A DNA stretch of 64,000 bases. Source: Bacteroidota bacterium (GTDB taxonomy: Bacteria; Bacteroidota; Bacteroidia; Palsa-965). Where the stretch lies: the NCBI GenBank assembly GCA_003153435.1, contig PLYR01000145.1, positions 20,034 to 84,033 on the forward strand, written 5' to 3'. The translations under genes and the position numbers were made by a program. Position 1 is the stretch's first letter. Every line of letters starts with the position of its first letter. Positions 20,133 to 52,676 of this stretch are shown piece by piece. A model generated the notes under the pieces. That model did not search any database, was not told where the DNA came from, and saw only the letters and a list, made by a program, of their open reading frames with translations.

Positions 20133-23100
20133 TTATTGGGTCCGAACGAGTGTGATAAATCCTTGCATATCATACACCACTCCATCGTCTCCCTTAGCAT
20201 GAATCACATAGAAGTAGGTGCCATTGGAGCAAACCTCACCAGCCATGGTGTGTCCGTCCCATGCTACACCAGGTGCTATGAGCTGAGCCATGGCTACTCC
20301 CCAACGGTCGTATATTTTGCAATCAAAGTAATCAATGCCGGCATAATTCACGTGCCAGTCGTCATTGATTCCGTCTCCGTTAGGTGTAAAAATGTTAGGT
20401 GCAGATATGAAAGATTTGATCTCTGATACATCAATGACTACACTATGGGTACTGGTACAGCCACTAGCATTGGTGACTGTAAGAAGTACGGTATAAGTTC
20501 CCGGAACGGTATAGAGATCATTCGCTCCGTTCTGTCCGTTTGCAGTGTTTCCGTCTCCGTAATTCCAGCTCCAGGTAGTTGCAGTGGCAGAACTGGAATC
20601 TGTAAATCCAACATAGAGTGGGGGAGTTCCGCTAAGGGTGCTCGGAATAAAGTTTGCGTTCACCGTGTTGACGGTTACGGGGAAGTTGGCACTGGCTGTG
20701 GTTCCGCATCCGTTAGTTGCGCTTACCGAATAGTTGCCTGTAGAATGAACCCAGATGGAGGCATTGCTCGATCCGGTACTCCACAGATATGGGCCTCCTC
20801 CATTTGCAGTTAACTGAACAGAATCTCCGTTACACATACCACTCTGACCGGTAATAGTAGGGGAGGGCTTCGGTAATACCGACATAGCGATGGTGGTAGA
20901 ATCTGTGCCGCATGCATTGGTTACATAAACCACATACACTCCGGCCGTATTAACTGTAATCGAGTCGCTGGTTGAGCCTGTGCTCCAGGAGTAAGTTCCT
21001 CCTCCACCGGCCGACAGGATAACATTGGTGCCTGCACAGAAGTTGGTGTTTCCTCCATTTGTAGAGATGGTAGGCACTGGTTTATTTCCGGTGTTCAATA
21101 TAGTTGTTGTTACAGATGCAGTACAGCCGTGAGCATCAATGACGTTGCAGGTATAGACTCCGGGTGTAAGCGTGGTAGCATTCGCTGTATTTCCTCCGGA
21201 AGGTAACCAGCTCCAGGTATAACCGGAAGTTCCTCCGCTAGGGGTGGCAGAAGCCGAACCGTCAGCTTGACCACATGTTGCTGCCGTAGGTGCAGCTGTT
21301 ACAGCAAGAACAGCAGGCTGGGTAACGGTAAATACCTGAGGAAGGGTACATCCATTCTGGTCAGTTACCGTGCAAGTATAGTTGCCAGCACTAAGCCCGC
21401 TTGCGGTTGCCCCTGAACCTCCTGATGGGGTCCAGTTATAGGTATAGATTGCTGTACCACCGCTTACAGTTGCAGTTCCACTGCCATTGGAGCTGCCGTT
21501 ACAACTTGCATTTGTTTGAGAAGAAACAATAGCGAGGGGGGTAGGCTGAGTGATGGTATAGATGTGTGAGGTCGTACAACCATTTGCATCTGTAACATTA
21601 CAGGTATAAGTACCTGCTGCAAGACCGCTTGCAGTCTGAGCACTTCCACCGGATGGTGTCCAGCTATAGGTATAAGCTGAAGTTCCACCGGCGACTGTAG
21701 CTGTGGCAGATCCTGTATTTCCACCGTTACAAAGGGCATTTGCCTGAGCCGAAGTGATTGAGAGTACGGCAGGCTGAGCAATGATTACAGATTGAGTGGA
21801 GACGCAGTTGCTGGCATCCGTTACAGTGCAGACATAAGTTCCGGCACAAAGAGACGAAGCTGTAGCAGCATTACCACCGCCTCCAGACCAGCTGTAAGCA
21901 AAAGGTGCAGTGCCACCGGTAGCGTTAACTGTAGCAGATCCGTTGCAGGATGCGTTACAAAGAGCCGCGTTATTAGAAGCAATACTCACACTAGGCGCAC
22001 CGGCAGAACTAATTGAAATGAGAGAGTCAAGGGTACAGCCATTAGCATCCTGAACAGTAACCGTATAACTTCCCGCAGCCAGACCAGTCACCGAATTGGT
22101 TCCTTGTCCACCACCTGGAGCAGGTGTCCAGTTATAAGTGTCAGCACCGGTTCCACCACTTGCAGTGACGGAAGCAGTACCGGTAGAGGTACCACAACCC
22201 GTTTGAGTACTTGCAGGTACCATGGAAAGCGAAGATATAGGTTGAGTTACAGAAACCGTGCTGGAGGTCGTACAACCGTTCGCATCAGTGATGTTACAAG
22301 TATAGGTGCCAGCCGCAAGACCTGTGGCAGTCACGGCGGTTTGTCCTCCGCCAATAACCCCGCCGGTCCAGTTATAAGTATATCCTATAGTGCCTCCGGA
22401 TACAGCTACGCTAGCTGTTCCTGAGGAACCACCTTTACAATTAACACTGGTTTGTGAAGGCGCAGCGCTTAGTACAGCAGGCGCAGCGATCGTTACTACC
22501 TGGCTTGTTACACAATTATTATTATCTGTCACGAAGCAGGTATAGCTGGTGTTTGCGCAAAGTGCGGTTGCCGTTGCAGCAGTTCCTCCAATGGGTGACC
22601 AAGAATAGGTATAAGTGCCGGCTCCTCCGCTTGCGGCAACTGTGGCCGATCCGTCACAGGAAGCGTTACACAGTGCAGGAGCTTGAGAAGCGATACTTGC
22701 TGAAGGTCCGCCAGCAGAGACAATATTATAAGTGGTAGACTGAGCACAATTATTTGCATCATTAACAGTTACGGTGTATGCACCTGAAGCAAGACCCGTG
22801 GCTGTTGGCGTTCCTTGTCCACCTCCAGGTGCAGGAGACCATGTATAGGTATCAGCACCTGTTCCGCCGGAAGCAGTAACTGTTGCAGTACCAGTGGCAA
22901 TTCCACAACCTGTATTGGTAGATGAAGGGGTAAGTGAAAGAGCACTCGCCGGTTCAGTTACAGCAATTGAGGCGGAAGTGGTACAACCGTTTGCATCGGT
23001 AATGTTACAGGTATAAGTTCCTGCGGCCAGTCCGGTTGCGGTAGAAGCAGTTTGTCCTCCTCCGATTACACCACCGGTCCAGGCGTAAGTATAGCCCGTT

Positions 23101-26100
23101 GTGCCACCCGATACCGTAACAGAAGCTGTTCCACTGGAACCACCGGTACAAAGTGCACTGGTTTGAGTTGGATTAGCGCTTAAAGCTACAGGGGCTCCGA
23201 TGGTTACATTCTGAGAGGTAACACAATTATTGGCATCGGTTATGGTACAAACATAAGTGGTATTCGCACAAAGTCCTGAAGCGGAGATTCCTGTTCCGCC
23301 TGAAGGTGACCAGGAATAGGTATACGCACCAGTACCACCGCTAGGTGCTACAGTAGCACTTCCATCGCAAGATGCACTACATTTTGCAGGAGCCTGAGAA
23401 GCAATAGATACAGAGGGTCCTCCAGCTGATGTTATGGTATAAAAGGATGTTTGAGGACAAGCATTCGCATCATGCACGGTCAATGTATATGTTCCTCCTC
23501 CAAGTCCTGTTGCAGTACTGGTTCCCTGTCCTCCTCCCGGTGCCGGTGCCCAGGTATAGGTGAAAGCACCGGTCCCGCCAGAGACAACCGCATTGGCTGT
23601 ACCGGTTGAAATTCCACATCCGGTGGTTGTGGAAGAAGGGGTGATTGAAATAACAGGTGGCTGAGTAATATTTATTACCTGAGGATGCGGGCAATTGTGT
23701 GAATCTGTTACTGTACAAGTATAGGTCCCTGCACTCAGGTTACTTGCTGTTGCAGAGTTTCCACCTGAAGGGGTCCACACATATATATACGCAGGTGTAC
23801 CTCCTGAAGGAGTAACGGTCGCGCTGGCTGTGCTGTTACCGCTACAAGATTCATTCAGCTGGGTGGCAGTGGTAGTTAAAGGCCCTGGCTGGACAATGTT
23901 AAAAGTGTGAGAGAGAGGACAACCATTTGCATCATGAATTGTGCAGGTATAGGTTGTTCCTCCAACAAGACCGTTGGCGGAATTAGTTCCTTGTCCACCA
24001 CCCGGTGCAGGAGCCCAGGTATAGGTAATAGCACCAGTACCGCCAGATGCGCTTGCAGTGGCTGTACCGTTGTTGTTTCCGTTACAGGTCACATTATTTT
24101 GAGAGGGAGCGATTGCTAAGGCACTTGGTTGTGTAATTGCAAAAGTTTGTGCAACCGGACAGTTGTTTGCGTCATGAACAGTACAGGTATAAGTAGTTGC
24201 ACCTACCAAGCCAGTAGCAGTGGCTGTGCCTTGTCCACCACCCGGAGCCGGAGCCCAGGTATAAGTATATCCTGCAGTACCACCGGAAGCAGTTGCCGTA
24301 GCGGTTCCATTATTGGAGCCATTACAATTCACATTTGCCTGGGTAGGAGTGATAGAAGGTGATGTACCGGGCTGAGTGATGGCAAAGGTTTGTGCTTTAG
24401 GGCAGCCATTCGCATCGTGAATGGTACAGGTATAGGTTGCGGGTCCGGAAAGTCCGGTCGCTGTGTTGGTTCCTTGTCCTCCTCCGGGTACAGGTGCCCA
24501 GGTGTAAGTGATTGCACCGGTACCGCCTGAAGAAGTTGCAGTGGCGGTTGCATTACTGCCCCCAAAACAACTTACGTTAGCCTGAGTAGGTACAATAGAT
24601 AAGGCGGATGGTTGTGTGATAGCAAAGGTTTGGGCCTTTGGACATCCATTTGCATCATGAATCGTACAAGTATAGGTGGTAGCTCCTGCTAATCCTGTTG
24701 CGGTGTTGGTTCCCTGACCACCACCCGGAGCGGGAGCCCAGGTATACGTTATAGCACCCGTTCCACCGGAGGCTGTTGCTGTTGCTGTTCCATTGGCAGA
24801 ACCGTTACAATTTACATTGGCTTGTGTTGGAGTAATCGATAATGCAGAGGGATTCGAAATTGTATACGTATGCGAAGCGGAGCAGCCGTTTGCTGTAGTT
24901 ACCGTACAAGTATAAGTGCCGGAGCCAAGTCCTGTTGCGGTTGCGGAGCCTTGCCCGCCTCCTCCATATCCAGCCCCAGTCCAATTATAGGTATAAGGGG
25001 CGTTTCCACCAGAAGCAGAAGCTGTAGCTGTTCCATTGCCGGAACCAACGCATGTAACATTAGAAGAGCTTGGTGTTATGGTTGCGGGTACAGCAAATGT
25101 AGCCAGCGTGCTGACGGTATAGCTACAACCATTTCCGGGAGTAACGGTAACCGTATAGGTACCACTTGCGTTGATAGTGATTACAGAGCCGGTAGTCGAT
25201 CCTACAATTCCGGGGCCGGTCCATGAAAAGGTTGTACCGGTCGGGCTTGGAGGAGCCGTAACAGTCATTGTGGAACCAATACAAGCTGCGGGCGTAGAAA
25301 CATTAAGTTGTTTAGGTCCGCAGGATCCATCGATATAAGCGTAACCGAAGTGACCACCGTGACTGCAGCCTGCAGCCGAAAAATAGATAGAGATCGTCTG
25401 ACCTGCAAACCCCGACAAGTCTAAAGTGTTTGACTGCCAGCCGGAAGAATAAACACCTGCGGCTACTGTGGAATATCCAGAAGGCGGTGATCCTGAAGTA
25501 CACTCCTGATAATATTGAAGACAAGGGATGACATGACCTGCTCCGTCGAAAACGTCCACCTCGAAATAAGGCATATCACCTAAGGGATGGCCTCCATCCT
25601 GCAGAATAACTGCATAGTTATAGGTGTAAAGGGCGTTGGTGGCATCCACAGTGAACTGTTGTTCGAGTAACTCTGCTCCGGCGTAAAAGCCTCCGCCTTG
25701 ACTAGCGGTAGTGGAGGTTTGTGCATAGGAATATGGAGGATAAATCCAGTACGGGGGCGTTGGAGAATAAGCTATATTCGGATCAATATACCCCCCACCA
25801 CACGAGCCTCCTTCAAGATTGAAATTATAGCCTCCAAGTCTGCAGGCATAGTTTCCACCACCCGGATCAACCATGGGTAAGCCTGAATAGGGGTCACTGC
25901 CTCCGCTGACAATGGTATGGGCATTACAGGATCCTACAGAGGCATTGGCTCCGCTTGGGCTGTATATTGTCCAGGAATTAACAAACATACTCAGGCCGTT
26001 CGGAATAGCACCTGCATTAAAACCATAGGCACCAGTCCAACCGGTGTAATCACCGGTTTCAAAGTCAGCATTATTACAACCAGCAAGAGGGTGTGGGTTC

Positions 26101-26450
26101 ACATGTGCAGCTCTTTGAGCTTTTACCTCAGCCTCCAGATCTTTGATGTGCTTGGCTTTATCGCGTTTAGGAGGAATGATATTATCGGGAATATGGTATT
26201 TGTCCTTCACGTAATGCGACTGAAGATGAAACATGTAATGCTTCTTCTCCGACTCCGCCATAGAGCCACGGAAGTTCATTGTATTCAATTCTGCTTGTGC
26301 CGCGGCGAAATCAAATCCGTTCAGACTATCACCTGCATAAAAATGATAGTCAACCTGATTCGAGGTAGGACCAATCGGGTTTCTTTCTTGTGCATAAGAA
26401 AAGGCGACAAGAAGGAAGAAGAAAAGTAAGGAGAGTAGTTTTTTATTCAT
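20133..26450 (-). CDS. Giant SprB-like cell-surface adhesin secreted by the T9SS. It has a signal peptide, an N-terminal domain of about 380 aa of unknown function, about 19 SprB-type repeats and PKD-like domains. It ends in a T9SS type-B CTD (gliding-motility-associated C-terminal domain).
   Basis: The start is placed at the ATG at 26450 (MNKKLLSLLFFFLLVAFSYAQ). The listed TTG at 26471 only adds 7 residues. The repeats have the form SGGTG.ITYTWAP.PGGGQGT.TATGL..GTYTCT..DANGC. The last roughly 85 residues match the type-B CTD (NIFTPNGDGINDDW...YDRWG). Confidence 0.8.
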   Translation of the reverse strand: MNKKLLSLLFFFLLVAFSYAQERNPIGPTSNQVDYHFYAGDSLNGFDFAAAQAELNTMNFRGSMAESEKKHYMFHLQSHYVKDKYHIPDNIIPPKRDKAKHIKDLEAEVKAQRAAHVNPHPLAGCNNADFETGDYTGWTGAYGFNAGAIPNGLSMFVNSWTIYSPSGANASVGSCNAHTIVSGGSDPYSGLPMVDPGGGNYACRLGGYNFNLEGGSCGGGYIDPNIAYSPTPPYWIYPPYSYAQTSTTASQGGGFYAGAELLEQQFTVDATNALYTYNYAVILQDGGHPLGDMPYFEVDVFDGAGHVIPCLQYYQECTSGSPPSGYSTVAAGVYSSGWQSNTLDLSGFAGQTISIYFSAAGCSHGGHFGYAYIDGSCGPKQLNVSTPAACIGSTMTVTAPPSPTGTTFSWTGPGIVGSTTGSVITINASGTYTVTVTPGNGCSYTVSTLATFAVPATITPSSSNVTCVGSGNGTATASASGGNAPYTYNWTGAGYGGGGQGSATATGLGSGTYTCTVTTANGCSASHTYTISNPSALSITPTQANVNCNGSANGTATATASGGTGAITYTWAPAPGGGQGTNTATGLAGATTYTCTIHDANGCPKAQTFAITQPSALSIVPTQANVSCFGGSNATATATSSGGTGAITYTWAPVPGGGQGTNTATGLSGPATYTCTIHDANGCPKAQTFAITQPGTSPSITPTQANVNCNGSNNGTATATASGGTAGYTYTWAPAPGGGQGTATATGLVGATTYTCTVHDANNCPVAQTFAITQPSALAIAPSQNNVTCNGNNNGTATASASGGTGAITYTWAPAPGGGQGTNSANGLVGGTTYTCTIHDANGCPLSHTFNIVQPGPLTTTATQLNESCSGNSTASATVTPSGGTPAYIYVWTPSGGNSATASNLSAGTYTCTVTDSHNCPHPQVINITQPPVISITPSSTTTGCGISTGTANAVVSGGTGAFTYTWAPAPGGGQGTSTATGLGGGTYTLTVHDANACPQTSFYTITSAGGPSVSIASQAPAKCSASCDGSATVAPSGGTGAYTYSWSPSGGTGISASGLCANTTYVCTITDANNCVTSQNVTIGAPVALSANPTQTSALCTGGSSGTASVTVSGGTTGYTYAWTGGVIGGGQTASTATGLAAGTYTCNITDANGCTTSASIAVTEPASALSLTPSSTNTGCGIATGTATVTASGGTGADTYTWSPAPGGGQGTPTATGLASGAYTVTVNDANNCAQSTTYNIVSAGGPSASIASQAPALCNASCDGSATVAASGGAGTYTYSWSPIGGTAATATALCANTSYTCFVTDNNNCVTSQVVTIAAPAVLSAAPSQTSVNCKGGSSGTASVAVSGGTIGYTYNWTGGVIGGGQTAVTATGLAAGTYTCNITDANGCTTSSTVSVTQPISSLSMVPASTQTGCGTSTGTASVTASGGTGADTYNWTPAPGGGQGTNSVTGLAAGSYTVTVQDANGCTLDSLISISSAGAPSVSIASNNAALCNASCNGSATVNATGGTAPFAYSWSGGGGNAATASSLCAGTYVCTVTDASNCVSTQSVIIAQPAVLSITSAQANALCNGGNTGSATATVAGGTSAYTYSWTPSGGSAQTASGLAAGTYTCNVTDANGCTTSHIYTITQPTPLAIVSSQTNASCNGSSNGSGTATVSGGTAIYTYNWTPSGGSGATASGLSAGNYTCTVTDQNGCTLPQVFTVTQPAVLAVTAAPTAATCGQADGSASATPSGGTSGYTWSWLPSGGNTANATTLTPGVYTCNVIDAHGCTASVTTTILNTGNKPVPTISTNGGNTNFCAGTNVILSAGGGGTYSWSTGSTSDSITVNTAGVYVVYVTNACGTDSTTIAMSVLPKPSPTITGQSGMCNGDSVQLTANGGGPYLWSTGSSNASIWVHSTGNYSVSATNGCGTTASANFPVTVNTVNANFIPSTLSGTPPLYVGFTDSSSATATTWSWNYGDGNTANGQNGANDLYTVPGTYTVLLTVTNASGCTSTHSVVIDVSEIKSFISAPNIFTPNGDGINDDWHVNYAGIDYFDCKIYDRWGVAMAQLIAPGVAWDGHTMAGEVCSNGTYFYVIHAKGDDGVVYDMQGFITLVRTQ
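20900..25270 (-). repeat. Intragenic tandem array of about 240-bp (about 80-aa) diverged SprB-repeat units, with roughly 17-19 copies
   Basis: The translated product shows periodic recurrence of the TYTW/AP.PGGGQGT and DANGC motifs. The region is Gly/Thr/Ala-rich and high in GC. This generates many spurious open frames on the plus strand. Confidence 0.7.
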
Positions 26451-26988
26451 CGTTGTGTTAATGATTATCAAAGGTTAAATCATAACATTGTAAAGCGTAT
26501 CCAATTCGCAATACACGAATCAAATTAATCCGGCCAAATAACAGATTGGACGATGGAATTACTCTTTTGTACGGAAGATTTCAAGAATAGATATACTTTT
26601 CTTAAAATAAACCTCAAAAACAATAATTATATTTGTAATCAGATCAATATTATAGGATTCCCTAAGCCTTATATTATTGATTAGTAGTGAGTTCTGCAGT
26701 GTGGTTCTTGGCTTTAAATTTCCGAAAAATTCCCGAAACCAGACAGGATAATTTGATAACATTCGACCAAAAGTATTTTATTGTCGACAAATATTATTAA
26801 ATATTCGACTAATATACTAAAAATAACTACTAACTAAAGTTTTTAGGCACATAAATTAGGCTTTTGACTGTATAAAATGGCCTTTCATCCAAAAAATAAT
26901 TTCGGAATTCAAGCGCAGACCTTGTAAGATTTCGGCAGGAAATTGTGATCGACAGGCAGGCCGATTTATGGGAAGAAATGCTAATTTA

Positions 26989-27372
26989 TTAAAGCTTTGA
27001 AAGACTCATTCCTTCTTTATTCTGTTGTTCAAGGCTCCATTTATCAGTGGTGGTAATACTTAACCATTCCTTTCCTGATTTGCGATAGAATCTTACGTTT
27101 AAGCCGAAAACATCTCTGAAATCCTGTTCAAGTTCTGAACTGCTCATTTCAGGAGATATGGTAACAGTACCTTTATTATGCATTATTCTTACCTCCCCAA
27201 GCTTTTGACTATTGCTGGCTACGGATTTGGGGGAGGGAGAAGCCATTGCACCCGAAGCTTTTCCCAAAAATTCAATTTTCAGATAAGGAAACAAATTATT
27301 GAATTCTTCCTGTAATGCATGAATTTTGCGATGGTCATTGATTATGATTTTCATGGAAATTAGAATTTGCAT
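26989..27372 (-). CDS. Hypothetical small protein
   Basis: It is a 127-aa ORF with no recognisable motif. It lies between the AT-rich promoter region of the giant adhesin gene and the REC-CRP regulator gene. Confidence 0.35.
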   Translation of the reverse strand: MQILISMKIIINDHRKIHALQEEFNNLFPYLKIEFLGKASGAMASPSPKSVASNSQKLGEVRIMHNKGTVTISPEMSSSELEQDFRDVFGLNVRFYRKSGKEWLSITTTDKWSLEQQNKEGMSLSKL

Positions 27373-27479
27373 TTAAAATCGAATTTTCATCTTCGATATT
27401 TATCACACAAAAATATCCTGAAATGTTGCGAAAGGAAATGACCTGTGTTGAAAAGGGGATGATTTTAATCAGGCAGGGG

Positions 27480-28541
27480 TTAATTCTTTACACATGAAAG
27501 TTTGTCGTAGTCGAGTACACTTATAAGCCGGCCTTTAATCTCGATAAGCTTTTCATCTTTCAAGTCGCTTAACATCCTGATGGCTGTTTCAGGCGCTGTT
27601 CCGGCCAGGTTTGCCAAATCTTCTCTCGAGATGCTGATACTGAAATTAGCTTCTCCATCTTTCTTGTACCTGTTGTAAAGTGTGACAAGCGCTTCCGCCA
27701 CCCGTTTACGAACGGAATTGTAGGCAAGTTTGAGGAGTTGGTCTTCTTTGTCAATTAAATCATTGGAAAGCATCTTGATAAATTTCTTTGAAACATCAGC
27801 ACTTTTATAAATCAGGGAGAAAAAATTATCTTTCGGAATCATGCAGATTTCAGAGTCTTCCAAAGTCATCGCCTCCTCTGTGTATTTGCTTTCTTCAAGC
27901 AAGGATAAGTGACCGAAAAATTCACCTTCCTTATAAAGACCATTGATGAATTCTTTCCCGAATTCATTTGTTTTAAAGGTTTTCACCTTTCCTTTAATAA
28001 CGAAATAAATTCCTTTAGGGTATCCTCCTGAGCTATATATTGATTCTTTCTTGCGGTAGTGATGAATATCCCGGTCTTCAGAAAGTTTTTTAAGGGTATC
28101 CAACCCTCCTGTTTCATTCATAAAGTCCTGAAGCCCTTCCAGACTTCTTTCGAATTTCTTCTTGAGATTATCAGCCTTTTTCAGTCTGCTGTCAATAGCA
28201 TTTAGCAGTTCCATATCGTCGAAAGGTTTGGTGATATAATCATCGGCTCCCATTTCCATTCCTTTTCTGAAATCATTCCTTTCGGTTTTGGCGGTAAGGA
28301 ATATAAAGGGGATATTGGAAGTTTCAGGGTTTTTGCCAAGCATATGCAATACGCCATAGCCATCCAGATGAGGCATCATGATATCACAAATAATTAAATC
28401 AGGCATTTCCGCAGAAACCATTTCCATACCTTCTTTTCCATTTGAAGCAGCCCTTACCTTATATCTGGCAAGTTCAAGCATTTCAGTCGTATTTTCCCGA
28501 AGTTCCGTGTTATCTTCGATTAAGAGGATTTTTTTGTGCAT
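27480..28541 (-). CDS. Fusion regulator with a CheY-like receiver domain, a cNMP-binding (CRP/FNR effector) domain and a Crp-type HTH
   Basis: The receiver motifs are LLIEDN...DLIICDIMMP...LTAK. A cNMP beta-roll with G-rich motifs follows. The C-terminal HTH is REDLANLAGTAPETAIRML. The start is placed at the ATG at 28541, 6 bp inside the listed TTG. It is a paralogue of the gene at 39439-40500. Confidence 0.75.
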   Translation of the reverse strand: MHKKILLIEDNTELRENTTEMLELARYKVRAASNGKEGMEMVSAEMPDLIICDIMMPHLDGYGVLHMLGKNPETSNIPFIFLTAKTERNDFRKGMEMGADDYITKPFDDMELLNAIDSRLKKADNLKKKFERSLEGLQDFMNETGGLDTLKKLSEDRDIHHYRKKESIYSSGGYPKGIYFVIKGKVKTFKTNEFGKEFINGLYKEGEFFGHLSLLEESKYTEEAMTLEDSEICMIPKDNFFSLIYKSADVSKKFIKMLSNDLIDKEDQLLKLAYNSVRKRVAEALVTLYNRYKKDGEANFSISISREDLANLAGTAPETAIRMLSDLKDEKLIEIKGRLISVLDYDKLSCVKN

Positions 28542-28637
28542 ATTCAAGTTGTTAATTATGATTGGCTCCTCTTTAAATTAAACAAATGTTAAGAATTCTT
28601 GCGATACCAAAATTAGGGAATGGATCCTTGGTAAACA

Positions 28638-28649
28638 TGATGAATATCA
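28638..28649. promoter_or_regulatory. Candidate CRP/FNR-type operator, the palindrome TGAT-GAAT-ATCA
   Basis: It is a perfect 4-4-4 inverted repeat in the divergent intergenic region. It lies about 80 bp upstream of the terB-like operon and about 100 bp upstream of the divergent REC-CRP gene. Confidence 0.3.
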
Positions 28650-28728
28650 GTTAATCTCTGGATATAGGTCATTCCAGGAAAACAATAGGCGAATTAGATT
28701 TGTCTTGTAATCAACTAATACCATAAAA

Positions 28729-32333: not shown

Positions 32334-33425
32334 TCATGGATTAGCCGTCTGAAATGGAATTGTAAAGTAAAGGGTACTACCAAAACCTATTCGGCTCTCC
32401 ACCCAGATCCTGCCACGAGCCTTCTCGACAATTTTCCTCACTATGGAAAGGCCCACTCCTGTACTTTCCACATCTTTCCGGTGGTGGGCCTTCACAAAGA
32501 CGTCAAATATTTTTTCAAAATAGCGTTCTTCTATCCCCATTCCGTTATCCTCTACAAAGAACATCCATTCATTCCCTTTCTTGTCCCACCCAATCTTTAT
32601 TACTCCATCCGGTTTGTCCATGAATTTTACGGCATTCCCAATCAGGTTTTCAAAAACCTCTCTAAGGTGCGTCTTATTGAAAAGCACAGTTGGAAACCGT
32701 TCGGATAAAATGAATTTGATCTTAATCCTGCTGGTATAGCGCTTTGCAATTTCATCCAGCAAATCATTTAAGTTAATCGTTTCAGCCTCCTCCTGGTTGT
32801 TCCCCACCCTGAAATACTCCAGGAGGTCAACGATAAGTGCATTCATGTAGTTGGCTTCCTTTTGTGCTAAATGAAACAGGGTTATAAATTCTTCATCCAT
32901 TTGAGCGGAATATTTTGCAAGACTCAGGTCAAGCACGCCTTTGATTCCATTCAAAGGGTTTTTGAGATCATGAGCTGCAACCCTGGTCAACATTTCCAAT
33001 TCCTTGTTGGCTCTTTCAAGATCCTCCACCAATTGCTTAAGCTGCTCCTCATACCTGATTCGTTCGGTGATATCCTTACCGGATGAGACAAAATGAGTGA
33101 TCTCCCCGGTATCATCACATACCGGAGTAATAGTCTTTTCTTCGAAATAGATCTCTCCGTTCTTTTTTTTGTTACAAACTACTGCGCGAAAGGGTTTCTT
33201 GGCTAGGATCGTCTCCCACATACCTCGGTAGTAATCTTTAGTAGCCCTGCCTGACTGAAGGAATCGTGGATTCTTCCCTAATACCTCCTCAGAAGTATAT
33301 CCTGTTATGGTCTCAAAAGCAGGATTTACGTAGGTTATAGCTCCATCTTTGGTTGTAAAAAATATATTATCGGAGGTGATCTTAATCGCAGAGTCAAACC
33401 CAATGGGGACTGTACTGATATTCAT
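32334..33425 (-). CDS. PAS-domain sensor histidine kinase (cytoplasmic)
   Basis: The PAS motifs are ITYVNPAFETITGY, EEVLGKNPRFLQS. The HisKA H-box is AAHDLKNPLNGI. The HATPase_c boxes N (LIGNAVKF) and G1/G2 (DNGMGI, GVGLSI) are present. Confidence 0.75.
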   Translation of the reverse strand: MNISTVPIGFDSAIKITSDNIFFTTKDGAITYVNPAFETITGYTSEEVLGKNPRFLQSGRATKDYYRGMWETILAKKPFRAVVCNKKKNGEIYFEEKTITPVCDDTGEITHFVSSGKDITERIRYEEQLKQLVEDLERANKELEMLTRVAAHDLKNPLNGIKGVLDLSLAKYSAQMDEEFITLFHLAQKEANYMNALIVDLLEYFRVGNNQEEAETINLNDLLDEIAKRYTSRIKIKFILSERFPTVLFNKTHLREVFENLIGNAVKFMDKPDGVIKIGWDKKGNEWMFFVEDNGMGIEERYFEKIFDVFVKAHHRKDVESTGVGLSIVRKIVEKARGRIWVESRIGFGSTLYFTIPFQTANP

Positions 33426-33466: not shown

Positions 33467-34009
33467 CTATTTTCGAACGCTTGACATCAATTTTAGCGTT
33501 GAACAAAGAACATAGATTACTACAACCATAAATATTAGGGCTGCAAACAAAAGGTATTCAGACATGCTGAACTGATTCAAAATGGAAGCGCTCTGGATTT
33601 TTGGTTCAGCCGAATTTATTGAAGCAGAGCTTACGGGTGTCTCCGTAGGGACGGGCTTAACGGCTTGTGCTGCACCTTCTACCTGAATGAAAGCCAATAC
33701 AGATTTTATCTCTGAATCCTTCAAAGGCTGGTCGGTCATTGGCATTCCATTGTTTTCATTGAATAGACGTACAGCTTCCGGATCACCTGCCTGAACCATC
33801 TTCTGGGATGATTTTATCCATTTTAATGACCAGCTCTCCGGATGCCGGTCATTCACTCCTAAAAGATCCGGACCAACCAATTTGCCTTTGCCGATGGTGT
33901 GACAAGCTCCGCAATTGGCTTTGAATAAAGTTCCTCCATCCTGTCCGGATGAAAGCTGGGCGTAATGCAGAAGGAAAATTGTTGCGATAAATGTGAGTTT
34001 GGTTTTCAT
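33467..34009 (-). CDS. Class I c-type cytochrome with a C-terminal membrane anchor
   Basis: It has a signal peptide. The haem-binding motif is CGACH, and a Met-rich distal region (NGMPM) follows. The C-terminus has a hydrophobic helix (YLLFAALIFMVVVIYVL). Confidence 0.65.
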   Translation of the reverse strand: MKTKLTFIATIFLLHYAQLSSGQDGGTLFKANCGACHTIGKGKLVGPDLLGVNDRHPESWSLKWIKSSQKMVQAGDPEAVRLFNENNGMPMTDQPLKDSEIKSVLAFIQVEGAAQAVKPVPTETPVSSASINSAEPKIQSASILNQFSMSEYLLFAALIFMVVVIYVLCSTLKLMSSVRK

Positions 34010-34153
34010 ACTTGTGTTGATTTAATATGTCTCGAAAGTATTGTGAATACGCAGGGTCGGGAATGACATTTGGCAGATCCCGGGATGATAATTATCAGTG
34101 ATTCGCATTTTAGGGTCTTAAGCCTCCCGAGGTGACATGAATCATGCTCCCAT

Positions 34154-34166
34154 TTGACGTTGATCA
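34154..34166. promoter_or_regulatory. Candidate FNR-type box TTGAC-GTTG-ATCA
   Basis: It matches TTGAT-N4-ATCAA at 8 of 10 positions. It lies in the 360-bp divergent intergenic region between the anchored cytochrome c gene and the porin-like gene. Confidence 0.25.
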
Positions 34167-34368
34167 TTAAGGTAAGACTTGGTTCGGTGCATATTTGTGC
34201 AATCTTAATTCCGAACAATACCAAAACCAAGCAAGATGAAAAAGACAAGAAAAGTTCACTTATCTGGAAGATTACCAACGGACGGCCTCCCAGGGTTGGA
34301 TATACCAAAGTATACAGTGGTTAACGGAAATAAATTGTCAATCAATTAACGAGTTAAAAGTCAAAAAA

Positions 34369-35595
34369 ATGAAAACAGGATACAAAGCACAAACGATGAT
34401 CGTCTTAGGTGGATTGCTGCTACAATCATTATGCACCATTCCCCTTCATGCACAATCAGATTCAACCGGAACGGCTCCAAGTGAAATCCCCAACAAAGCC
34501 AAAGGGGGAGGTACGAAATTTCTTTTGGCAGGAAAAGCGCAGCAGTCGTGGACAAATACCAAAGTAGATGGAAGTCCTAATTCTCATACCTTCTATCCGG
34601 ATGCATTAATGCTGATGCCTTTGGTAAAGTTGAACGATCGGCTCTTTTTAGATGCACAAATCGAGGTGGACCCCAACACTACCGGAGGGGCGGCCATCAA
34701 TCTGAACGAAATGATCGTGTATTTCCGTGCCACCAATTGCCTAAATATCTTCGCCGGAGATTTCAGTCCGAAGTACGGAATGTACATGGGTGTTTTGGAT
34801 GATTTTACAAACCGTTATGCTACTAACCCGATAGGAATGAACAGGGGGCCTGGTACTCAAACAGGAATCGGGGTTCAAGGAGGCATTCAAGCAGGGACCA
34901 CAAAGCTAAATTACCAGTTCTATCTTGCTAATGGTCCTCAGTTATTGGTTGACAGCACGACCCAGGGTAATTCTAACCCAACGGGGCAGCTTAGTTATGG
35001 AAATTACGCGGATAACAACAACAACAAAGCAATTGGAGGATCTATCGGTTTTCTTCCATTATCCAACTCCAATCTGCAGATTGATATATCTGGACAAGTA
35101 GCCGCTAAAACGGGAAATCTGGGAACGATGTATGAAAATGTAAGCAGCACCTCCTGGGCAGCGGATCTTAACTATTATCACTTGTTTAATCCTCTTATGG
35201 TCAGGGTACAAGCTGAATATAACAGCACCGTTACCCAAAATAAGACCTATCCCTGGAAGTCAACGGCAGACAGCACTAAATCACTGGTTCCTGCATTTAA
35301 CAATCAACTCAGTGGCTGGTTTGTGGGTGCCACACTTCGTCTTGCAGGTGTAAAAAGTGTCATCCTTAGCAATTTTGAATTAGGAGCACGGGTTGGTGGG
35401 TATACCCCTCCACAGTATACAGGACTTGGAACTACTCCTGCCGTGTGGGGTGAGAATCCGGAACAGCAAACCACTATATGTCTTACCTATTGGTTCACCT
35501 GGAAAACGCCGCTCAACTTTGCTTATGATGTATTGAAAACAACCGGCGGACCTACGATAACCACCTACACTGCACGATTAATTTATTTCTTCTAA
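34369..35595 (+). CDS. Outer-membrane beta-barrel (porin-like) protein
   Basis: It has a signal peptide. Amphipathic beta-strand periodicity runs throughout. The C-terminus ends ...ARLIYFF with a terminal Phe. A small cytochrome c gene follows after 20 bp. Confidence 0.45.
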   Translation: MKTGYKAQTMIVLGGLLLQSLCTIPLHAQSDSTGTAPSEIPNKAKGGGTKFLLAGKAQQSWTNTKVDGSPNSHTFYPDALMLMPLVKLNDRLFLDAQIEVDPNTTGGAAINLNEMIVYFRATNCLNIFAGDFSPKYGMYMGVLDDFTNRYATNPIGMNRGPGTQTGIGVQGGIQAGTTKLNYQFYLANGPQLLVDSTTQGNSNPTGQLSYGNYADNNNNKAIGGSIGFLPLSNSNLQIDISGQVAAKTGNLGTMYENVSSTSWAADLNYYHLFNPLMVRVQAEYNSTVTQNKTYPWKSTADSTKSLVPAFNNQLSGWFVGATLRLAGVKSVILSNFELGARVGGYTPPQYTGLGTTPAVWGENPEQQTTICLTYWFTWKTPLNFAYDVLKTTGGPTITTYTARLIYFF

Positions 35596-36195: not shown

Positions 36196-37596
36196 CTATT
36201 TGATAATTCTGGACTTGCTTTCAATTGTTTCCACTAAAGATGGCATTTCCTTCTTTACCTGGGCTATTCCACCTCTCACGTTAGCAACATTCGTAAATCC
36301 TTTTCCTTTTAGTATAGAGGCGGCAATCATCGACCGGTACCCTCCCGCACAATAGATAAGATATTTGGATGCGGAATTGAGTTGGGCTAGCTGCTGTGGC
36401 AATACCTCAAGCGGAATATTAAGCGAGTGCTTTATTCTATTTTCTGATGCCTCTGCGGCGGTCCTTACATCCAACGGTATGTAACCCTCATCCAAGTAGA
36501 GTTCAAGTTGATGTTCGGAGATCGTTTCAACATGGTCGAGGGTATATTGTGCTTTAATCCAACCCATCAGATTATCTTTCTGATATCCTTTAACATTATC
36601 AAATCCAATTCTTGCCAGCCGTATAACTGCATCCCGTTCTTTCTGTTCATTTACAACCAGTACAATTGGTTTGTCGGCAGGAATCAGGTTCCCTACCCAT
36701 ACGGCAAAAGCACCATCGAGTCCGATGTTCAATGATCCTTTGATGAAACCAATACCAAATTCCGTAGAGTTTCTAACATCCAGAACCACAGCCCCTTTAT
36801 TCATTTCTGCACGAAAGTCCTCCAAATTCAGAGGCATTATCGCTTTTTGAATCACAGTTTCAAGCATTTCATAACCATTTTTATTAGCATTTACATCATG
36901 AGAGAAATAAGGAGGAGGTGCAGGCAAATCTTCAATAACCTTTTTAATAAACAGTTCTCTGTTCATCGGTTGCAGTGCGTAATTTTTGTTCTTCTGCACG
37001 CCGACAGTCGACCAAGTTTCTTTCCCTAGACTTTTCCCGCATGCTGAACCAGCCCCATGACCGGGGTATATGATCACACTATCGGGCAACCCGCTTATCA
37101 ATTTGTTTAGAGAATCGTAAAGCATGGAAGCCAATGCTTCTTTTCCAAGGTTTCCGCTTCCCAGATCAGGTCGGCCGACATCCCCGACAAAAAGGGTATC
37201 TCCCGTAAATACTACGTATGGATGATCTTCCTCATTATAAGCCAGAAAACAAGATGACTCCAAGGTGTGCCCAGGAGTGTGAATCAGTTTAATTTTTATT
37301 TTTCCAAGATTAACGGTATTTCCATCCTTCGCCACCATAGCTTTGAAAGCGGGCTTAGCAGTAGGGCCAAAAATGATGACGGCACCGGTTTTTTCTGCCA
37401 GTTCCAGATGGCCGGAAACAAAGTCAGCATGAAAATGAGTTTCAAGCACGTATTGAATAGTTGCGTTTCTTTCCTTAGCCAACTTTAAGTAGACCTCCGT
37501 ATCTCGTATAGGATCAATAACAGCAGCGACCCCTTGAGATTCTATGAAATAGGAGGCTTGAGAAATGGAGGACGTATATATTTGCTTGATGTACAT
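36196..37596 (-). CDS. Persulfide dioxygenase-rhodanese fusion (ETHE1-like MBL-fold hydrolase plus two rhodanese domains, CstB/PRF type)
   Basis: The MBL motif is ETHFHADFVSG. Two rhodanese modules follow. The second carries the catalytic Cys loop (LIYCAGGYRS). Confidence 0.7.
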   Translation of the reverse strand: MYIKQIYTSSISQASYFIESQGVAAVIDPIRDTEVYLKLAKERNATIQYVLETHFHADFVSGHLELAEKTGAVIIFGPTAKPAFKAMVAKDGNTVNLGKIKIKLIHTPGHTLESSCFLAYNEEDHPYVVFTGDTLFVGDVGRPDLGSGNLGKEALASMLYDSLNKLISGLPDSVIIYPGHGAGSACGKSLGKETWSTVGVQKNKNYALQPMNRELFIKKVIEDLPAPPPYFSHDVNANKNGYEMLETVIQKAIMPLNLEDFRAEMNKGAVVLDVRNSTEFGIGFIKGSLNIGLDGAFAVWVGNLIPADKPIVLVVNEQKERDAVIRLARIGFDNVKGYQKDNLMGWIKAQYTLDHVETISEHQLELYLDEGYIPLDVRTAAEASENRIKHSLNIPLEVLPQQLAQLNSASKYLIYCAGGYRSMIAASILKGKGFTNVANVRGGIAQVKKEMPSLVETIESKSRIIK

Positions 37597-37891: not shown

Positions 37892-38142
37892 AAAGTAAAT
37901 GACCTCCTGTTTGTCATGAATGACTTTTGTCAGGCATTGAGGTGAGCTTTGGTCCCAGGTGGTAAATTCCCTGTAGCCAGTTAGAATATGCATAATTCAG
38001 GGTGTAATTAAAGAAAATGTATTTGAGGCAAGAGCCTCTGATAATCAGGCCAAAGGGCCATATATGTCACCCCTGGACATGATAAAAGTCAGTATTTAAG
38101 AACGGGAAAGCTCTCATTTTTGCTAAGTCACTGATATCCATA

Positions 38143-39414
38143 ATGCAACACGTATCACTCTTATTCCATAAATTAGCTGGTAAAATAGACCAGTATATGA
38201 TCAAGAATCTTGAAAGTAATGACATTTTCAAAATATTGTTCGATTCAGCCGGAGAAGGCTTAGTGCTTGCAGACAAGAAAGGAACGATGTTGATGGTCAA
38301 TACCAGGATGGAGGAGATGTTTGGATATGGAAAGGATGAGCTTATCGGTCAACAAGTAGAAGTTTTGATTCCCGAATCTCTTCATTCCCGGCACACTGCC
38401 CATCGGGAAAACTATAATAAACAGCCCAAAAAACGTTCAATGGGTGAAGGCATGGATCTGGTCGGCTGCCGGAAAGACAAAACGACATTACCGATAGAGA
38501 TCAGCCTTAACTATTTCTATTCCGGAGATGAAATGGTTGTGATGGGACTTGTCACCGATATTACCGAAAGAAAAAATACTCAAACACAATTGCTCCAGTT
38601 GAATACGGATCTTGAACAAAGAGTAACGGAACGGACCCAAATGCTAGCCGGTGCCATCAAGGAGTTGGAATATTCAAATAAAAGTCTGGAGAAAGCAGAA
38701 GAAGACCTGAAAAAAGCCCTGGAAGTTGAAAAAGAATTGGGTGAGCTGAAATCCCGATTTGTGTCTACCGCTTCCCATGAATTCCGGACTCCCCTCGCAA
38801 CGATTTTATCATCCGTTTCTCTGATTGCCAGATACGACAAACCAGAAGATAACGAAAAACGACAAAGGCATATTGAGCAGATTAAATTATCGGTAAGTGA
38901 ACTTCGGGAGATCTTAGATGATTTCCTCTCATTGAGTAAACTGGAGGAAGGCAAGATGAGAAATTCCCCGGATACTTTTGAGCTGACCGCTTTTTGCAAA
39001 AATATTGCTGGCGAAATGCAGATGCATGCAAAGTCAGATCAAAAAATTGAATACGTGCATGAAGGTCCAACGGAGATCCATCTCGACCATCAATTACTCA
39101 AAAATGTATTGGTCAATCTGCTTTCCAATGCCATTAAGTTCTCCGGAGAAGGATTGGAAATAACTATAACTTCGATTGTAAAAAATGGAATGCTTGAGAT
39201 TGCAGTGAAGGATAAGGGGCTCGGTATGTCAACGGAAGACCAAAAGCATTTATTTGAGCGTTTCTTCCGGGGGAAAAATGTAGCCGCGATCCAGGGAACT
39301 GGCCTGGGCCTCAATATTGTAAAAAAGTATGTGGAGTTGATGGAAGGCGAAATAAACTTTCAAAGCGAAATTAACAAAGGAACTACCTTTACAGTGTCAT
39401 TTAAATTAGCCTAA
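38143..39414 (+). CDS. PAS-domain sensor histidine kinase (cytoplasmic)
   Basis: It has a PAS domain (GTMLMVNTRMEEMFGYGKDELIGQ), a coiled-coil linker and an H-box (ASHEFRTPLATI). The HATPase_c N/G boxes are present. A REC-CRP regulator gene follows after 24 bp. Confidence 0.75.
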   Translation: MQHVSLLFHKLAGKIDQYMIKNLESNDIFKILFDSAGEGLVLADKKGTMLMVNTRMEEMFGYGKDELIGQQVEVLIPESLHSRHTAHRENYNKQPKKRSMGEGMDLVGCRKDKTTLPIEISLNYFYSGDEMVVMGLVTDITERKNTQTQLLQLNTDLEQRVTERTQMLAGAIKELEYSNKSLEKAEEDLKKALEVEKELGELKSRFVSTASHEFRTPLATILSSVSLIARYDKPEDNEKRQRHIEQIKLSVSELREILDDFLSLSKLEEGKMRNSPDTFELTAFCKNIAGEMQMHAKSDQKIEYVHEGPTEIHLDHQLLKNVLVNLLSNAIKFSGEGLEITITSIVKNGMLEIAVKDKGLGMSTEDQKHLFERFFRGKNVAAIQGTGLGLNIVKKYVELMEGEINFQSEINKGTTFTVSFKLA

Positions 39415-39438: not shown

Positions 39439-40500
39439 ATGTCAAGCACCATTTTACTCATTGAGGACAACACGGCTATGCGGAATAATATTTCAGAAAT
39501 ATTAGAGCTGGCTGGGTATAAGGTATTTCTTGCAGAAAATGGCAAGGTTGGTGTTGATTTAGCTAAAAAGGAAAAGCCGGATTTGATTGTTTGTGATATC
39601 TCCATGCCAGAGTTAGATGGTTATGGCGTTTTGCATATCCTGGGAAAGACTGCCGAGACCTCGGGTATTCCATTCATTTTCCTGACGGCAAAAACCGAGA
39701 AAGCTGATTTTCGAAAGGGTATGACCTTGGGTGCAGATGATTACCTGACTAAACCTTTCGACGATGTGGAACTGTTGGATGTGGTGGCCATTCGATTAAA
39801 AAAAGCATCCCTGCTTAAAAAGGAGTTTGAGAAAACTGCCAAAGGACTCAATGAGTTTATTGATAATGTGAGTGAAAGTCAGGGAATAAGCACCTTTACA
39901 AACAGTCGGAGCCTTAAAACACATAAGAAGAAAGAACTTGTTTTTTCGGAAGGGAATTACCCGATTGGAATCTACCTGGTTAATAAAGGAAAAGTTAAGA
40001 CGTTCAAATCGAATGAAGCCGGAAAAGAACTGATTACCGGTATTCACAAAGAAGGTGATTTTCTAGGCTATGTTCCGCTCTTGGAGGACATTGCTTACAA
40101 TGAATCTGCTGAGGTGCTGGAGGATGCAGAAATTTACATGATTCCCAAACAGGATTTCTTTACTTTGGTTTATAACAATAAAGAAGTATCAAGAAAATTT
40201 ATTCAGTTACTATCCAACAATCTTTCTGAACGAGAAGACCGGCTCATCAAACTGGCTTATAACTCCGTACGAAAAAGAGTGGCAGAAGCCCTGGTCATGC
40301 TTCATGACCGGTACCAGAGTACAAACTCAGCCAAAACCCCAATCTCCATTAATCGTGAAGACCTGGCAGGAATTGTTGGAACGGCTACAGAATCGGTCAT
40401 CCGTACCTTAGGTGATTTTAAAGATGAAAAGCTGATTGAAATTCAAAAAGGAGATATATCTGTTCTGAATATCGATAAATTAACAAAGCTGAAAAATTAA
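39439..40500 (+). CDS. Receiver / cNMP-binding / Crp-HTH fusion regulator. It is a paralogue of the gene at 27480-28541.
   Basis: It has the same three-domain order. The receiver motifs are LLIEDN, DLIVCDISMP, LTAK. The HTH is REDLAGIVGTATESVIRTL. It shares about 55-60% identity with the other copy by eye. Confidence 0.75.
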   Translation: MSSTILLIEDNTAMRNNISEILELAGYKVFLAENGKVGVDLAKKEKPDLIVCDISMPELDGYGVLHILGKTAETSGIPFIFLTAKTEKADFRKGMTLGADDYLTKPFDDVELLDVVAIRLKKASLLKKEFEKTAKGLNEFIDNVSESQGISTFTNSRSLKTHKKKELVFSEGNYPIGIYLVNKGKVKTFKSNEAGKELITGIHKEGDFLGYVPLLEDIAYNESAEVLEDAEIYMIPKQDFFTLVYNNKEVSRKFIQLLSNNLSEREDRLIKLAYNSVRKRVAEALVMLHDRYQSTNSAKTPISINREDLAGIVGTATESVIRTLGDFKDEKLIEIQKGDISVLNIDKLTKLKN

Positions 40501-40545: not shown

Positions 40546-40695
40546 TTGCTTATATTCTTTGATTCTATCTCTCTCCTGATTTATCCTGCTTTAAATCATA
40601 CTTATCAATGAGTCCGGTCATTTTACCAGATTGACAATGGAACTAGATTTGTTTAGTTAACAAATTTATGTTTCACATTGATTAAGTATATAAAA

Positions 40696-40962
40696 ATGAA
40701 AACAAGGCAACTTTTATTAAGAGTTCTATTCAGCGCGATACTCATCAATTTTGTCAGTTGTAAAGCCCTTAAGGATTCGCCAAGTACTATGGCCGTTGAT
40801 CCTTTGTGTCCTGTATGTCATATGAAGGTTAGCACCTCAGAGGGATTTAAGTGGAAATATAATGGGCAAACCTATTATTTTGATTCTTACTCTTGCAGGG
40901 AGTCCTTTAAAATGGATCCTGAAAGCATCCTGAAGAAAAATAATTGCGACGTGAAGAAGTAG
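40696..40962 (+). CDS. YHS/TRASH-type metal-binding domain lipoprotein
   Basis: The lipoprotein signal is ...NFVSC. It has DPLCPVCHMKV...YYFDSYSC, which matches the YHS motif (DPVCGM.V...YYFCS..C). The start is placed at the ATG at 40696 rather than the upstream TTG. Confidence 0.55.
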   Translation: MKTRQLLLRVLFSAILINFVSCKALKDSPSTMAVDPLCPVCHMKVSTSEGFKWKYNGQTYYFDSYSCRESFKMDPESILKKNNCDVKK

Positions 40963-43333: not shown

Positions 43334-43529
43334 CGCCTTATTTAAGATTTTTGTTCCCCGCACTTAGGAAGCACAGGAACAAATATATGGTTTACACGGC
43401 ATTCCAGGTATGAGGATAATCAGAATATGGATGATTAATATCATAATTCCCCATATAGTAATTGAAGACATTTATAAGGATTTAAAAAGCATCAATAATT
43501 GAAAACATTTAATTAGCAATCGTGAACCC

Positions 43530-51263: not shown

Positions 51264-52676
<1,413 letters not shown>

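Follow-up and report, generated by a model that had tools for sequence, protein, structure and literature searches.

The 64,000-nucleotide stretch of Bacteroidota DNA analysed here (the window) encodes two paralogous response regulators, RR-A and RR-B (Table 1), in which a phospho-receiver domain (REC) is fused to an FNR-type DNA-binding module, and these two proteins, one of them paired with a FixL-like haem kinase, probably act together to activate a densely packed low-oxygen gene island. By analogy with the FixL-FixJ-FixK cascade, such a protein can be described as a two-component regulator whose output is of the FNR type, a FixJ and a FixK functionally fused into one. To the model as a whole, which runs from the FixL-like kinase through the receiver-FNR fusion to the low-oxygen boxes at the promoters, we assign a probability of roughly 0.6. 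A previous reading of the same DNA from its letters and open reading frames (ORFs), the sequence-only reading, had proposed a hybrid two-component/CRP circuit. Its architecture, its receiver and the kinase partner of RR-B are retained here, whereas the CRP label, the second kinase as a partner and the limits set to the circuit are revised.

Pfam profiling yields the same three domains, at the same positions and above gathering scores, in both proteins: Response_reg at residues 5-116 (E 2e-29 in RR-A and 5e-28 in RR-B), cNMP_binding at 160-244 (1.5e-19 and 1.7e-17) and HTH_Crp_2 at 279-349 (1e-16 and 2e-15). The output domain is thus of the cNMP_binding plus HTH_Crp_2 type and not the LuxR (GerE) helix-turn-helix (HTH) of FixJ/NarL-type regulators. 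The two paralogues align without gaps over their 353 residues with 59% identity, and a protein identical to RR-B, with likewise the same neighbours, is found on metagenome contigs. The AlphaFold2 model of RR-B (mean predicted local distance difference test 83, predicted template modelling score 0.60) displays a (beta-alpha)5 receiver at 4-127, a helical linker at 134-148, beta-roll strands between 158 and 236, a 30-residue helix at 263-292 and a winged HTH at 301-349. When this model was compared with the PDB using Foldseek, the best 50 matches were CRP, FNR, NtcA or GlxR throughout, with about 200 aligned columns, which at the level of a predicted structure confirms a CRP/FNR fold for residues ~150-350. 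None of these 50 matches covers receiver and Crp module jointly, and a sequence search of the PDB returned no entry matching both the receiver half and the Crp half. The three-domain order proposed by the sequence-only reading, with a cNMP-binding fold in the middle, is therefore borne out for both copies by Pfam, AlphaFold2 and Foldseek.

The receiver retains its complete phosphorylation pocket, as had also been proposed. The acidic pair E9 and D10, the acceptor D53, T83 and K105 are present in RR-A and RR-B alike. All five are invariant or near-invariant in family alignments with 18, 58 and 70 relatives; in those of 58-70 members no variation is seen at E9, D10, D53 and K105, and T83 is kept in at least 90% of the sequences.

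Concerning the output module, its earlier description as a complete CRP unit turns out to be misleading. Residues ~150-350 of RR-B share 26% identity and the domain order with E. coli CRP (the kinship is backed by the CRP matches in the PDB), but the residues that contact cyclic AMP (cAMP) in CRP are largely gone. In RR-B, E72 is replaced by Y, R82 by E, T127 by R and S128 by E, with S83 kept; RR-A has H, E and E at positions 72, 82 and 83, and its T127 and S128 are also replaced. Both copies have thus lost E72, R82, T127 and S128, and RR-A has lost S83 as well, while an Arg at the phosphate-binding position is found in 0 of 16 diverse family members. Because these contacts are replaced, the beta-roll module is, judging by its residues, not a cAMP receptor. 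The proposal that phosphorylation replaces or supplements ligand binding is consequently favoured in its first form, by the loss of the CRP cAMP contacts, and kept in its second form as an alternative that is weighed below.

The module is better described as FNR/FixK-type. A third Crp/Fnr paralogue in the window, a stand-alone FNR-like protein that matches the FNR model from position 17, aligns through its residues 47-246 to residues 150-348 of RR-A with 35% identity and one gap. Since the alignment starts at RR-A 150, the receiver and linker sit exactly where the Cys-rich sensory arm would be, and residues 1-149 (receiver plus helical linker) appear to replace the Cys-rich arm of an FNR-type regulator. 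RR-B contains a single Cys (C52, within the receiver) and RR-A three scattered ones, so there is no FNR Cys cluster in either. The recognition helix follows the pattern E-(T/S)-x-I-R, with ETAIR in RR-A and ESVIR in RR-B; E318 and R322 are invariant in the REC-Crp family and align to the E-x-x-S-R motif of FNR, and the recognition helix of the FNR-like paralogue, ETAIR, is that of RR-A. The nearest solved relative of the output module is the Crp/Fnr-family protein 2GAU of Porphyromonas gingivalis (E 4e-22). Around the beta-roll pocket, G206, F208, G210, Y211 and A224 are near-invariant in the family alignments. As a side observation, the organism seems to pair a direct Fe-S oxygen sensor, predicted for the FNR-like protein, with kinase-driven fused regulators.

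The gene of RR-B lies, as previously stated, 24 bp downstream of that of a PAS histidine kinase, HK-B, whose start is placed 54 nt later, at 38197, in a metagenome gene call. Pfam finds no membrane domain in HK-B and its N-terminus has no visible hydrophobic segment; the protein is predicted to be a cytoplasmic, soluble kinase and the cognate sensor of RR-B. When its PAS domain alone is searched against the PDB, the best seven matches are all FixL haem domains (top E 6e-18, ungapped) and, after one unrelated PAS, the next are DosP and EcDOS, likewise haem PAS domains. The His that serves as the proximal haem ligand in BjFixL (H200) is invariant in an alignment of HK-B, 21 orthologues and BjFixL. 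The H214 position of BjFixL is occupied in the HK-B family by a near-invariant Arg, with another near-invariant Arg (R88) close by, and so are a Tyr, a Pro and a Gly-x-Gly motif near-invariant. One HK-B homologue carries the JGI name FixL. By its residues the PAS domain is hence FixL-like, with a ligand chemistry that may differ from that of BjFixL.

This kinase-regulator partnership is a conserved trait. In 14 of 16 related loci (from Chitinophaga relatives, Larkinella, Jiulongibacter, Niabella, Mucilaginibacter, Flavobacteriales, Hymenobacter, Runella and metagenomes), the gene immediately preceding that of the regulator encodes a FixL-like kinase with 35-71% identity to HK-B, and the pairing recurs in two further loci that hold the closest relatives of RR-A, giving 16 of 18 Bacteroidota loci in total. 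In these loci the pair usually adjoins genes for cbb3 oxidase, N2O reductase, HemN, Usp, globin or hemerythrin. The genes around it include ccoI-ccoS-ccoNO-ccoQ-ccoP-fixG-fixH/fixI, i.e. the cbb3 oxidase and its assembly genes, as well as truncated globins, hemerythrin/ScdA, Usp, persulfide-dioxygenase/rhodanese, hemN, pyruvate:ferredoxin oxidoreductase (PFOR), U32 peptidase and a clade-II nos cluster. Neighbours of the cbb3/hemN/Usp type compose the classical target set of FixK, FNR and Anr (PMC7888657, PMC9104804). The nos cluster occurs in one locus (L087, 9162-17059), where the pair adjoins the genes of a clade-II nitrous-oxide reductase system (nos_propeller, NosL, NosD, ABC transporter); from this context, a role of the module in controlling N2O respiration may be suspected as well. 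In the part of this locus that was examined, no box in register adjoins the nos genes.

RR-A, on the other hand, is best described as an orphan paralogue without an adjacent kinase. The sequence-only reading had pointed to another PAS kinase in its region, and this kinase, HK2, does exist; as a partner of the conserved type it does not qualify, since the relatives carry a FixL-like kinase. Its PAS domain matches the flavin-binding PAS of MmoS (3ewk, 1.5e-26), then PAS1 of NifL (2gj3) and then LOV domains, and it shares just 22-27% identity with the kinases upstream of REC-Crp genes elsewhere. HK2 was set aside as the likely partner of RR-A because the kinases adjoining family members elsewhere are FixL-like. 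It is probably co-transcribed with the cytochrome c gene 33467-34009 from a box-controlled promoter, and by its PAS type may provide a second, redox-type input rather than being the conserved partner. Its PAS motif GKNPRFLQSG has a Pro in place of the photoactive Cys of LOV domains.

In order to find the DNA sites, inverted dyads were counted de novo in the intergenic DNA of 17 loci chosen solely for carrying a REC-Crp gene. The counts yield a 14-bp palindrome, ATGAY-N4-RTCAT: ATGA-N6-TCAT was observed 16 times against 0.68 expected, TGAC-N4-GTCA 12 times against 0.31, and ATGAC-N4-GTCAT 6 times against 0.06. The core TGAY-N4-RTCA reaches 2.09 per kb in intergenic and 0.105 per kb in coding DNA, a difference of about 20-fold. 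In the window, 26 occurrences of the full box are found when up to one mismatch is allowed, compared with 11.5 +/- 3.3 in shuffled sequences, and 0 of 100 shuffles reach 26. The canonical FNR box TTGAT-N4-ATCAA, tried with up to two mismatches, is not enriched in the window (77 occurrences against 66 +/- 8.6 expected).

The geometry of the boxes is as distinct as their sequence. Tandem boxes are spaced by 22 bp in 19 pairs and by 23 bp in 3 pairs, with every other spacing between 12 and 60 bp occurring no more than twice, and such strict pairing is suggestive of two dimers bound on the same face of the DNA. Measured from the centre of the box, the offset to the -7 element of Bacteroidota, TAnnTTTG, has sharp peaks at 29 nt and at 51 nt (29 + 22). 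If the first T of this element lies near -11/-12, as in Bacteroides promoters, the box centres fall at about -41 and -63, where a class-II activator and its upstream helper would be placed. Among the exact cores in the window, 16 of 20 have a -7 element at 28-30 or 50-52 nt (binomial P ~2e-15), a register reached by 7% of random positions and by 0-1 cores at control offsets. Boxes also stand upstream of the kinase gene in five related loci (L082, L084, L085, L086 and L087), and in relatives box pairs of identical register are found before ccoS/ccoN, ccoI and the kinase-regulator operon. The base flanking the box is A in most loci and C in Hymenobacter, and no clear pattern of co-variation with recognition-helix residues was found.

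Box-bearing promoters number at least 15 between 27 and 60 kb of the window, including those of the RR-A and RR-B genes (Table 1). The HK-B/RR-B operon is accordingly among the predicted targets of its own product, its box and promoter suggesting autoregulation. The hemN product, an oxygen-independent coproporphyrinogen oxidase, scores above the NCBIfam cut-off, and the gene of a 619-residue protein probably also lies behind a box-bearing promoter. Between the two regulator genes lie those for TerB-like, hemerythrin, DoxX, Usp, Nramp, cytochrome c and MBL+rhodanese (persulfide-dioxygenase-like) proteins. This is the block for which the sequence-only reading had suggested a dedicated circuit of stress, redox and sulfide character. 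Its genes do belong to the predicted regulon; the restriction to the block does not hold, since box-bearing promoters extend from 27 to ~60 kb and the circuit is therefore wider than the DNA between the copies, and the regulon as predicted is a low-oxygen one instead.

Table 1. Regulator and kinase genes, boxes and promoters in the window. Positions are those of the window; -7 denotes the TAnnTTTG-type promoter element, and the strand is that of the gene or promoter.
Feature	Position	Strand	Details
RR-A, response regulator gene A	27480-28541	-	353 residues; ATG at 28541, in-frame TTG at 28547
RR-B, response regulator gene B	39439-40500	+	353 residues; starts 24 nt past the FixL-like kinase gene
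HK-B, FixL-like kinase gene	38143-39414	+	PAS-HisKA-HATPase_c (Pfam); ends 24 nt before the RR-B gene
HK2, second kinase gene	32334-33425	-	PAS-HisKA-HATPase; NifL/MmoS-type (flavin) PAS
Stand-alone FNR-like gene (third Crp/Fnr paralogue)	56067-56831	-	254 residues; N-terminal C-x2-C-x8-C plus internal Cys residues
Box ATGATTTTAATCAG	27459-27472		Upstream of 127-residue ORF 26989-27372 (-)
RR-A promoter	-7 TAATTTTG at 28615	-	In register with boxes 28637/28659
Tandem boxes ATGATGAATATCAG / TGGATATAGGTCAT	28637-28672 (28637, 28659)		22 bp apart; common to two divergent promoters
TerB-like/hemerythrin/DoxX/Usp/Nramp operon promoter	-7 at 28695	+	Boxes 28637/28659
Tandem boxes 34063, 34085	34063-34098	-	-7 at 34040; cytochrome c gene 33467-34009 and HK2
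Tandem boxes 34132, 34154	34132-34167	+	-7 at 34190; 408-residue gene 34369-35595
Box ATGACTTTTGTCAG	37920-37933	-	29 nt to -7 TACTTTTG at 37897; small ORF and MBL-rhodanese gene 36196-37596
Box ATGATAAAAGTCAG	38079-38092	+	29 nt to -7-like CATTTTTG at 38115; HK-B/RR-B operon
Tandem boxes	40586-40621		Before YHS-domain gene 40678-40962
Tandem boxes	43410-43444		Before AI-2E-family transporter gene 42299-43363 (-) and acetyl-CoA hydrolase/transferase gene 41029-42327 (-)
Box ATGACTATTATCAT	44298-44311		Before 223-residue gene 44419-45090
Tandem boxes	51107-51142		Before beta-eliminating lyase gene 51273-52676
Box ATGACTAAAATCAG	52723-52736		29 nt to TAGTTTTG; c-type cytochrome genes 52843-53304 and 53346-53846
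Perfect box ATGACTTTTGTCAT	55258-55271	-	29 nt to TACTTTTG; hemN 53861-55222
Perfect box ATGACGAAGATCAT	56840-56853		Between the FNR-like gene (-) and 417-residue gene 56901-58154 (+); -7-like element on the plus side

The mechanism that we propose builds on what the sequences show, namely the architecture, the conserved residues, the recurrent kinase-regulator pairing and the box with its spacing and promoter register; haem binding, oxygen as the signal, phosphotransfer, the choice of regulator at the box and activation are inferred. Soluble HK-B would sense falling oxygen through the deoxy form of its FixL-type haem-PAS domain, autophosphorylate and pass the phosphate to Asp53 of RR-B and perhaps also to the orphan RR-A. 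The phosphorylated receiver would make the dimeric FNR-like module competent for DNA binding, in parallel to what the [4Fe-4S] cluster does in FNR, either through dimerisation promoted via the long helix and the linker or through relief of an inhibitory contact. The beta-roll, binding no cAMP, would serve as a dimerisation and relay scaffold. The regulator would then bind ATGAY-N4-RTCAT about 41 bp upstream of the start at TAnnTTTG promoters, often with a second dimer 22 bp further upstream, and activate in the class-II manner. Predicted to be under its control are the HK-B/RR-B operon, RR-A, the Usp/hemerythrin/Nramp operon, three c-type cytochromes, the persulfide-dioxygenase-like gene, hemN and others, to which the cbb3 oxidase and its assembly genes would be added in relatives. 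Boxes stand before the genes of both regulators, and the prediction is therefore a self-amplifying system in which RR-A is a second-tier or parallel output.

Compared with known systems, the circuit comes close to the FixL-FixJ-FixK cascade of alpha-proteobacteria, which combines a haem-PAS kinase, a receiver and an FNR/CRP-family effector (PMC7888657, PMC9104804). Both have a haem-PAS kinase (here predicted) upstream of a receiver and an FNR/CRP-family protein as final effector. As for FixK, to which the functional resemblance is strong, the sites are palindromes with a TGA-N6-TCA core at about -41, and the targets, here predicted, comprise the cbb3 oxidase (fixNOQP/GHIS), hemN and stress proteins. 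The differences are that receiver and FNR-type module are here part of one polypeptide, with neither a LuxR-type FixJ output nor a transcriptional relay, that the box is ATGAY-N4-RTCAT instead of the TTGAT-N4-ATCAA of the FixK system, with 22-bp tandem sites common, that the promoters are of the Bacteroidota -7 type, and that the kinase lacks the distal Arg220. FixK itself is a stand-alone protein without sensory cofactor, transcriptionally controlled by FixJ or FxkR, whereas RR-A and RR-B carry their own receiver; by this analogy FixJ and FixK are, in effect, merged.

FNR of E. coli and Aliivibrio fischeri shares with the fused proteins the beta-roll, the long dimer helix, the winged HTH with its E-x-x-x-R helix, the class-II activator position and a sensory element N-terminal to the beta-roll. 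Unlike FNR, they have no Cys cluster and a whole receiver domain takes the place of the N-terminal sensory arm, so oxygen would be sensed indirectly, through the kinase. Relative to E. coli CRP, the fold and domain order of residues ~150-350 are the same, while the cAMP contacts are replaced, a receiver is added and the DNA half-site differs. The same-phylum protein 2GAU, a structural genomics entry whose name gives no function, is stand-alone and without a receiver.

Several points weigh against this model and should be considered together with the alternatives. The regulon evidence is computational throughout, with promoter starts inferred from the consensus. No kinase gene adjoins RR-A, nor is there one in a related locus (L002). 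From the PhoB-type alpha4-beta5-alpha5 salt-bridge set, compared by eye with PhoB, D100, D101 and E111 are kept, but the equivalents of R91 and R115 are not. The oxygen-binding Arg220 of BjFixL is Met in HK-B and Met, Ile, Tyr, Thr or Ala across the family, and Arg206 of BjFixL is unmatched in the family (it aligns with N), hence haem binding and ligand specificity stay predictions. Finally, the window encodes an FNR-like protein with the recognition helix of RR-A, similar genes lie near some related loci, and because of this common helix the box is not assignable to the fused regulators alone: it may be shared between both kinds of protein, in the way of the proteobacterial FNR and FixK boxes, or may be the FNR-like protein's alone. 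In the latter case the REC-Crp proteins would bind other sites or modulate the FNR-like protein through heterodimers or competition, a reading for which the Cys motif, the FNR model match and the ETAIR helix of this protein speak, together with stand-alone Crp/Fnr genes near some related loci. We regard it as unlikely, given that boxes are strongly enriched in loci picked only for their REC-Crp gene, which argues, short of proof, that the box goes with this family, and that in several lineages the kinase-regulator operon is immediately preceded by boxes. In addition, the invariance of E318 and R322 across the REC-Crp family leads one to expect the same DNA specificity in its members, and a fixed 22-bp tandem layout is, to our knowledge, not typical of FNR.

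Other alternatives leave the circuit as described and change its input. The kinase could respond to nitric oxide, carbon monoxide, the cellular redox state via a six-coordinate haem, or a non-haem ligand. The residue that replaces the distal Arg220 of BjFixL is mostly a Met, a residue that could serve as a ligand of the haem iron, like the nearby Met of EcDOS; the PDB matches to the HK-B PAS include DosP, and the ScdA, hemerythrin and globin genes of the neighbourhood also fit nitrosative stress. The conserved targets, however, form the classical oxygen-limitation set, with cbb3 oxidase, HemN, PFOR and Usp, and a B12-dependent ribonucleotide reductase nearby, so that a signal other than oxygen seems to us similarly improbable. 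Still less probable, in our view, is the variant in which phosphorylation supplements a small molecule, with the beta-roll binding a cyclic nucleotide in another mode, 2-oxoglutarate, haem or another compound and the regulator integrating two inputs. The beta-roll is well conserved, with near-invariant residues around its pocket, and NtcA (one of the PDB matches) and CooA are CRP/FNR members with non-nucleotide effectors; on the other side stand the replacement of CRP positions 72, 82, 127 and 128 in both copies, the phosphate-binding Arg that no family member has, and the many FNR/FixK-type proteins that have no pocket ligand at all.

The REC-Crp family is large. A homologue search returned at least 8,000 candidates at E <= 1e-20, a threshold that receiver-only proteins would pass too; the best 120 of these all have the three domains and are annotated merely as 'response regulator' or 'CRP-like cAMP-binding protein'. 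Among 1.84 billion cluster representatives there are 1,779 matches with E <= 1e-30, i.e. about 1,800 clusters at 50% identity, and the best 150 of these are collinear throughout, most with ~350 residues and a few being shorter fragments. In a contig scan, just 11 of 80 loci held full-length family members, because generic receiver peptides were used as patterns; the rest were ignored. The REC-cNMP-Crp combination is probably listed in domain-architecture databases and response-regulator censuses. Full-text literature searches found no study of REC + cNMP_binding + HTH_Crp regulators, and the earlier judgement of this circuit as poorly characterised holds as far as the literature could be checked. 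A 2022 sequence-similarity survey of CRP/FNR proteins covered 190-280 residues only, and because of this length limit the REC-Crp proteins fall outside it (PMC9603854). What appears to be new here is the functional reading, namely the FixL-like partner, the box, the promoter geometry and the regulon.

A broader proposal, which we put forward as tentative, is that a Met-bearing FixL-like haem kinase and a receiver-FNR fusion form a dedicated, previously undescribed Bacteroidota module that senses oxygen limitation and governs the master microoxic regulon of the phylum (cbb3 oxidase, N2O reductase neighbourhood, HemN, Usp), in which the receivers may bridge two dimers into a tetramer on the 22-bp pairs at -41/-63 of -7-type promoters; the bridging is speculation. 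If such tetramers form, they would activate in a way not known from CRP/FNR proteins. A REC-Crp fusion would in itself hardly astonish a specialist, and a phylum-wide low-oxygen circuit with a 22-bp tandem layout would be of more note. How genes respond to oxygen is known in detail for Proteobacteria and Firmicutes and hardly at all for aerobic and microaerobic Bacteroidota, a group that includes the Chitinophagia, Cytophagia, Sphingobacteriia and Flavobacteriia, all of them abundant in soil, water and sludge and on plants. Should the model hold, sensor, regulator, box and promoter geometry together would make low-oxygen regulons predictable from sequence across the phylum, including the cbb3 oxidase and the genes beside clade-II N2O reductase. 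It would also provide a natural example of a receiver domain taking over the job of the FNR iron-sulfur arm, and a compact kinase-regulator-box set reusable as an oxygen switch in Bacteroidota genetics.

Concerning the remaining genes of the island, five proteins encoded behind box promoters have no Pfam or NCBIfam match (34369-35595, 44419-45090 and 56901-58154 on the plus strand; 58393-60252 and 26989-27372 on the minus strand) and are candidates for low-oxygen functions; the 223-residue and 127-residue proteins recur beside the regulator pair in other loci. A 100-residue ORF with a TTG start and no family match (34006-34308, minus strand) holds four boxes and two divergent -7 elements, and because it is filled by these it is probably a regulatory region and not a gene. 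At the edge of the island, 60328-62898 (minus strand) encodes NrdJ, a B12-dependent class II ribonucleotide reductase scoring above the NCBIfam cut-off, with a one-mismatch box at 63033 that has no in-register -7 element.

It should be noted that an Rfam search of the whole window gave no RNA family at gathering score, and thus no B12 riboswitch, including upstream of nrdJ; the GC-rich stretch at 20-26 kb is therefore not explained by rRNA. This stretch contains the gene (20133-26471, minus strand) of a 2112-residue SprB-repeat protein with a PKD domain and a CHU_C type-IX secretion signal, and its GC content is ~0.50 against a window background of ~0.42. A final observation is an unusual fusion at 1162-5025 (plus strand), where a 1287-residue ORF joins an MMPL-type transporter region with acyltransferase and SAM-methyltransferase domains.

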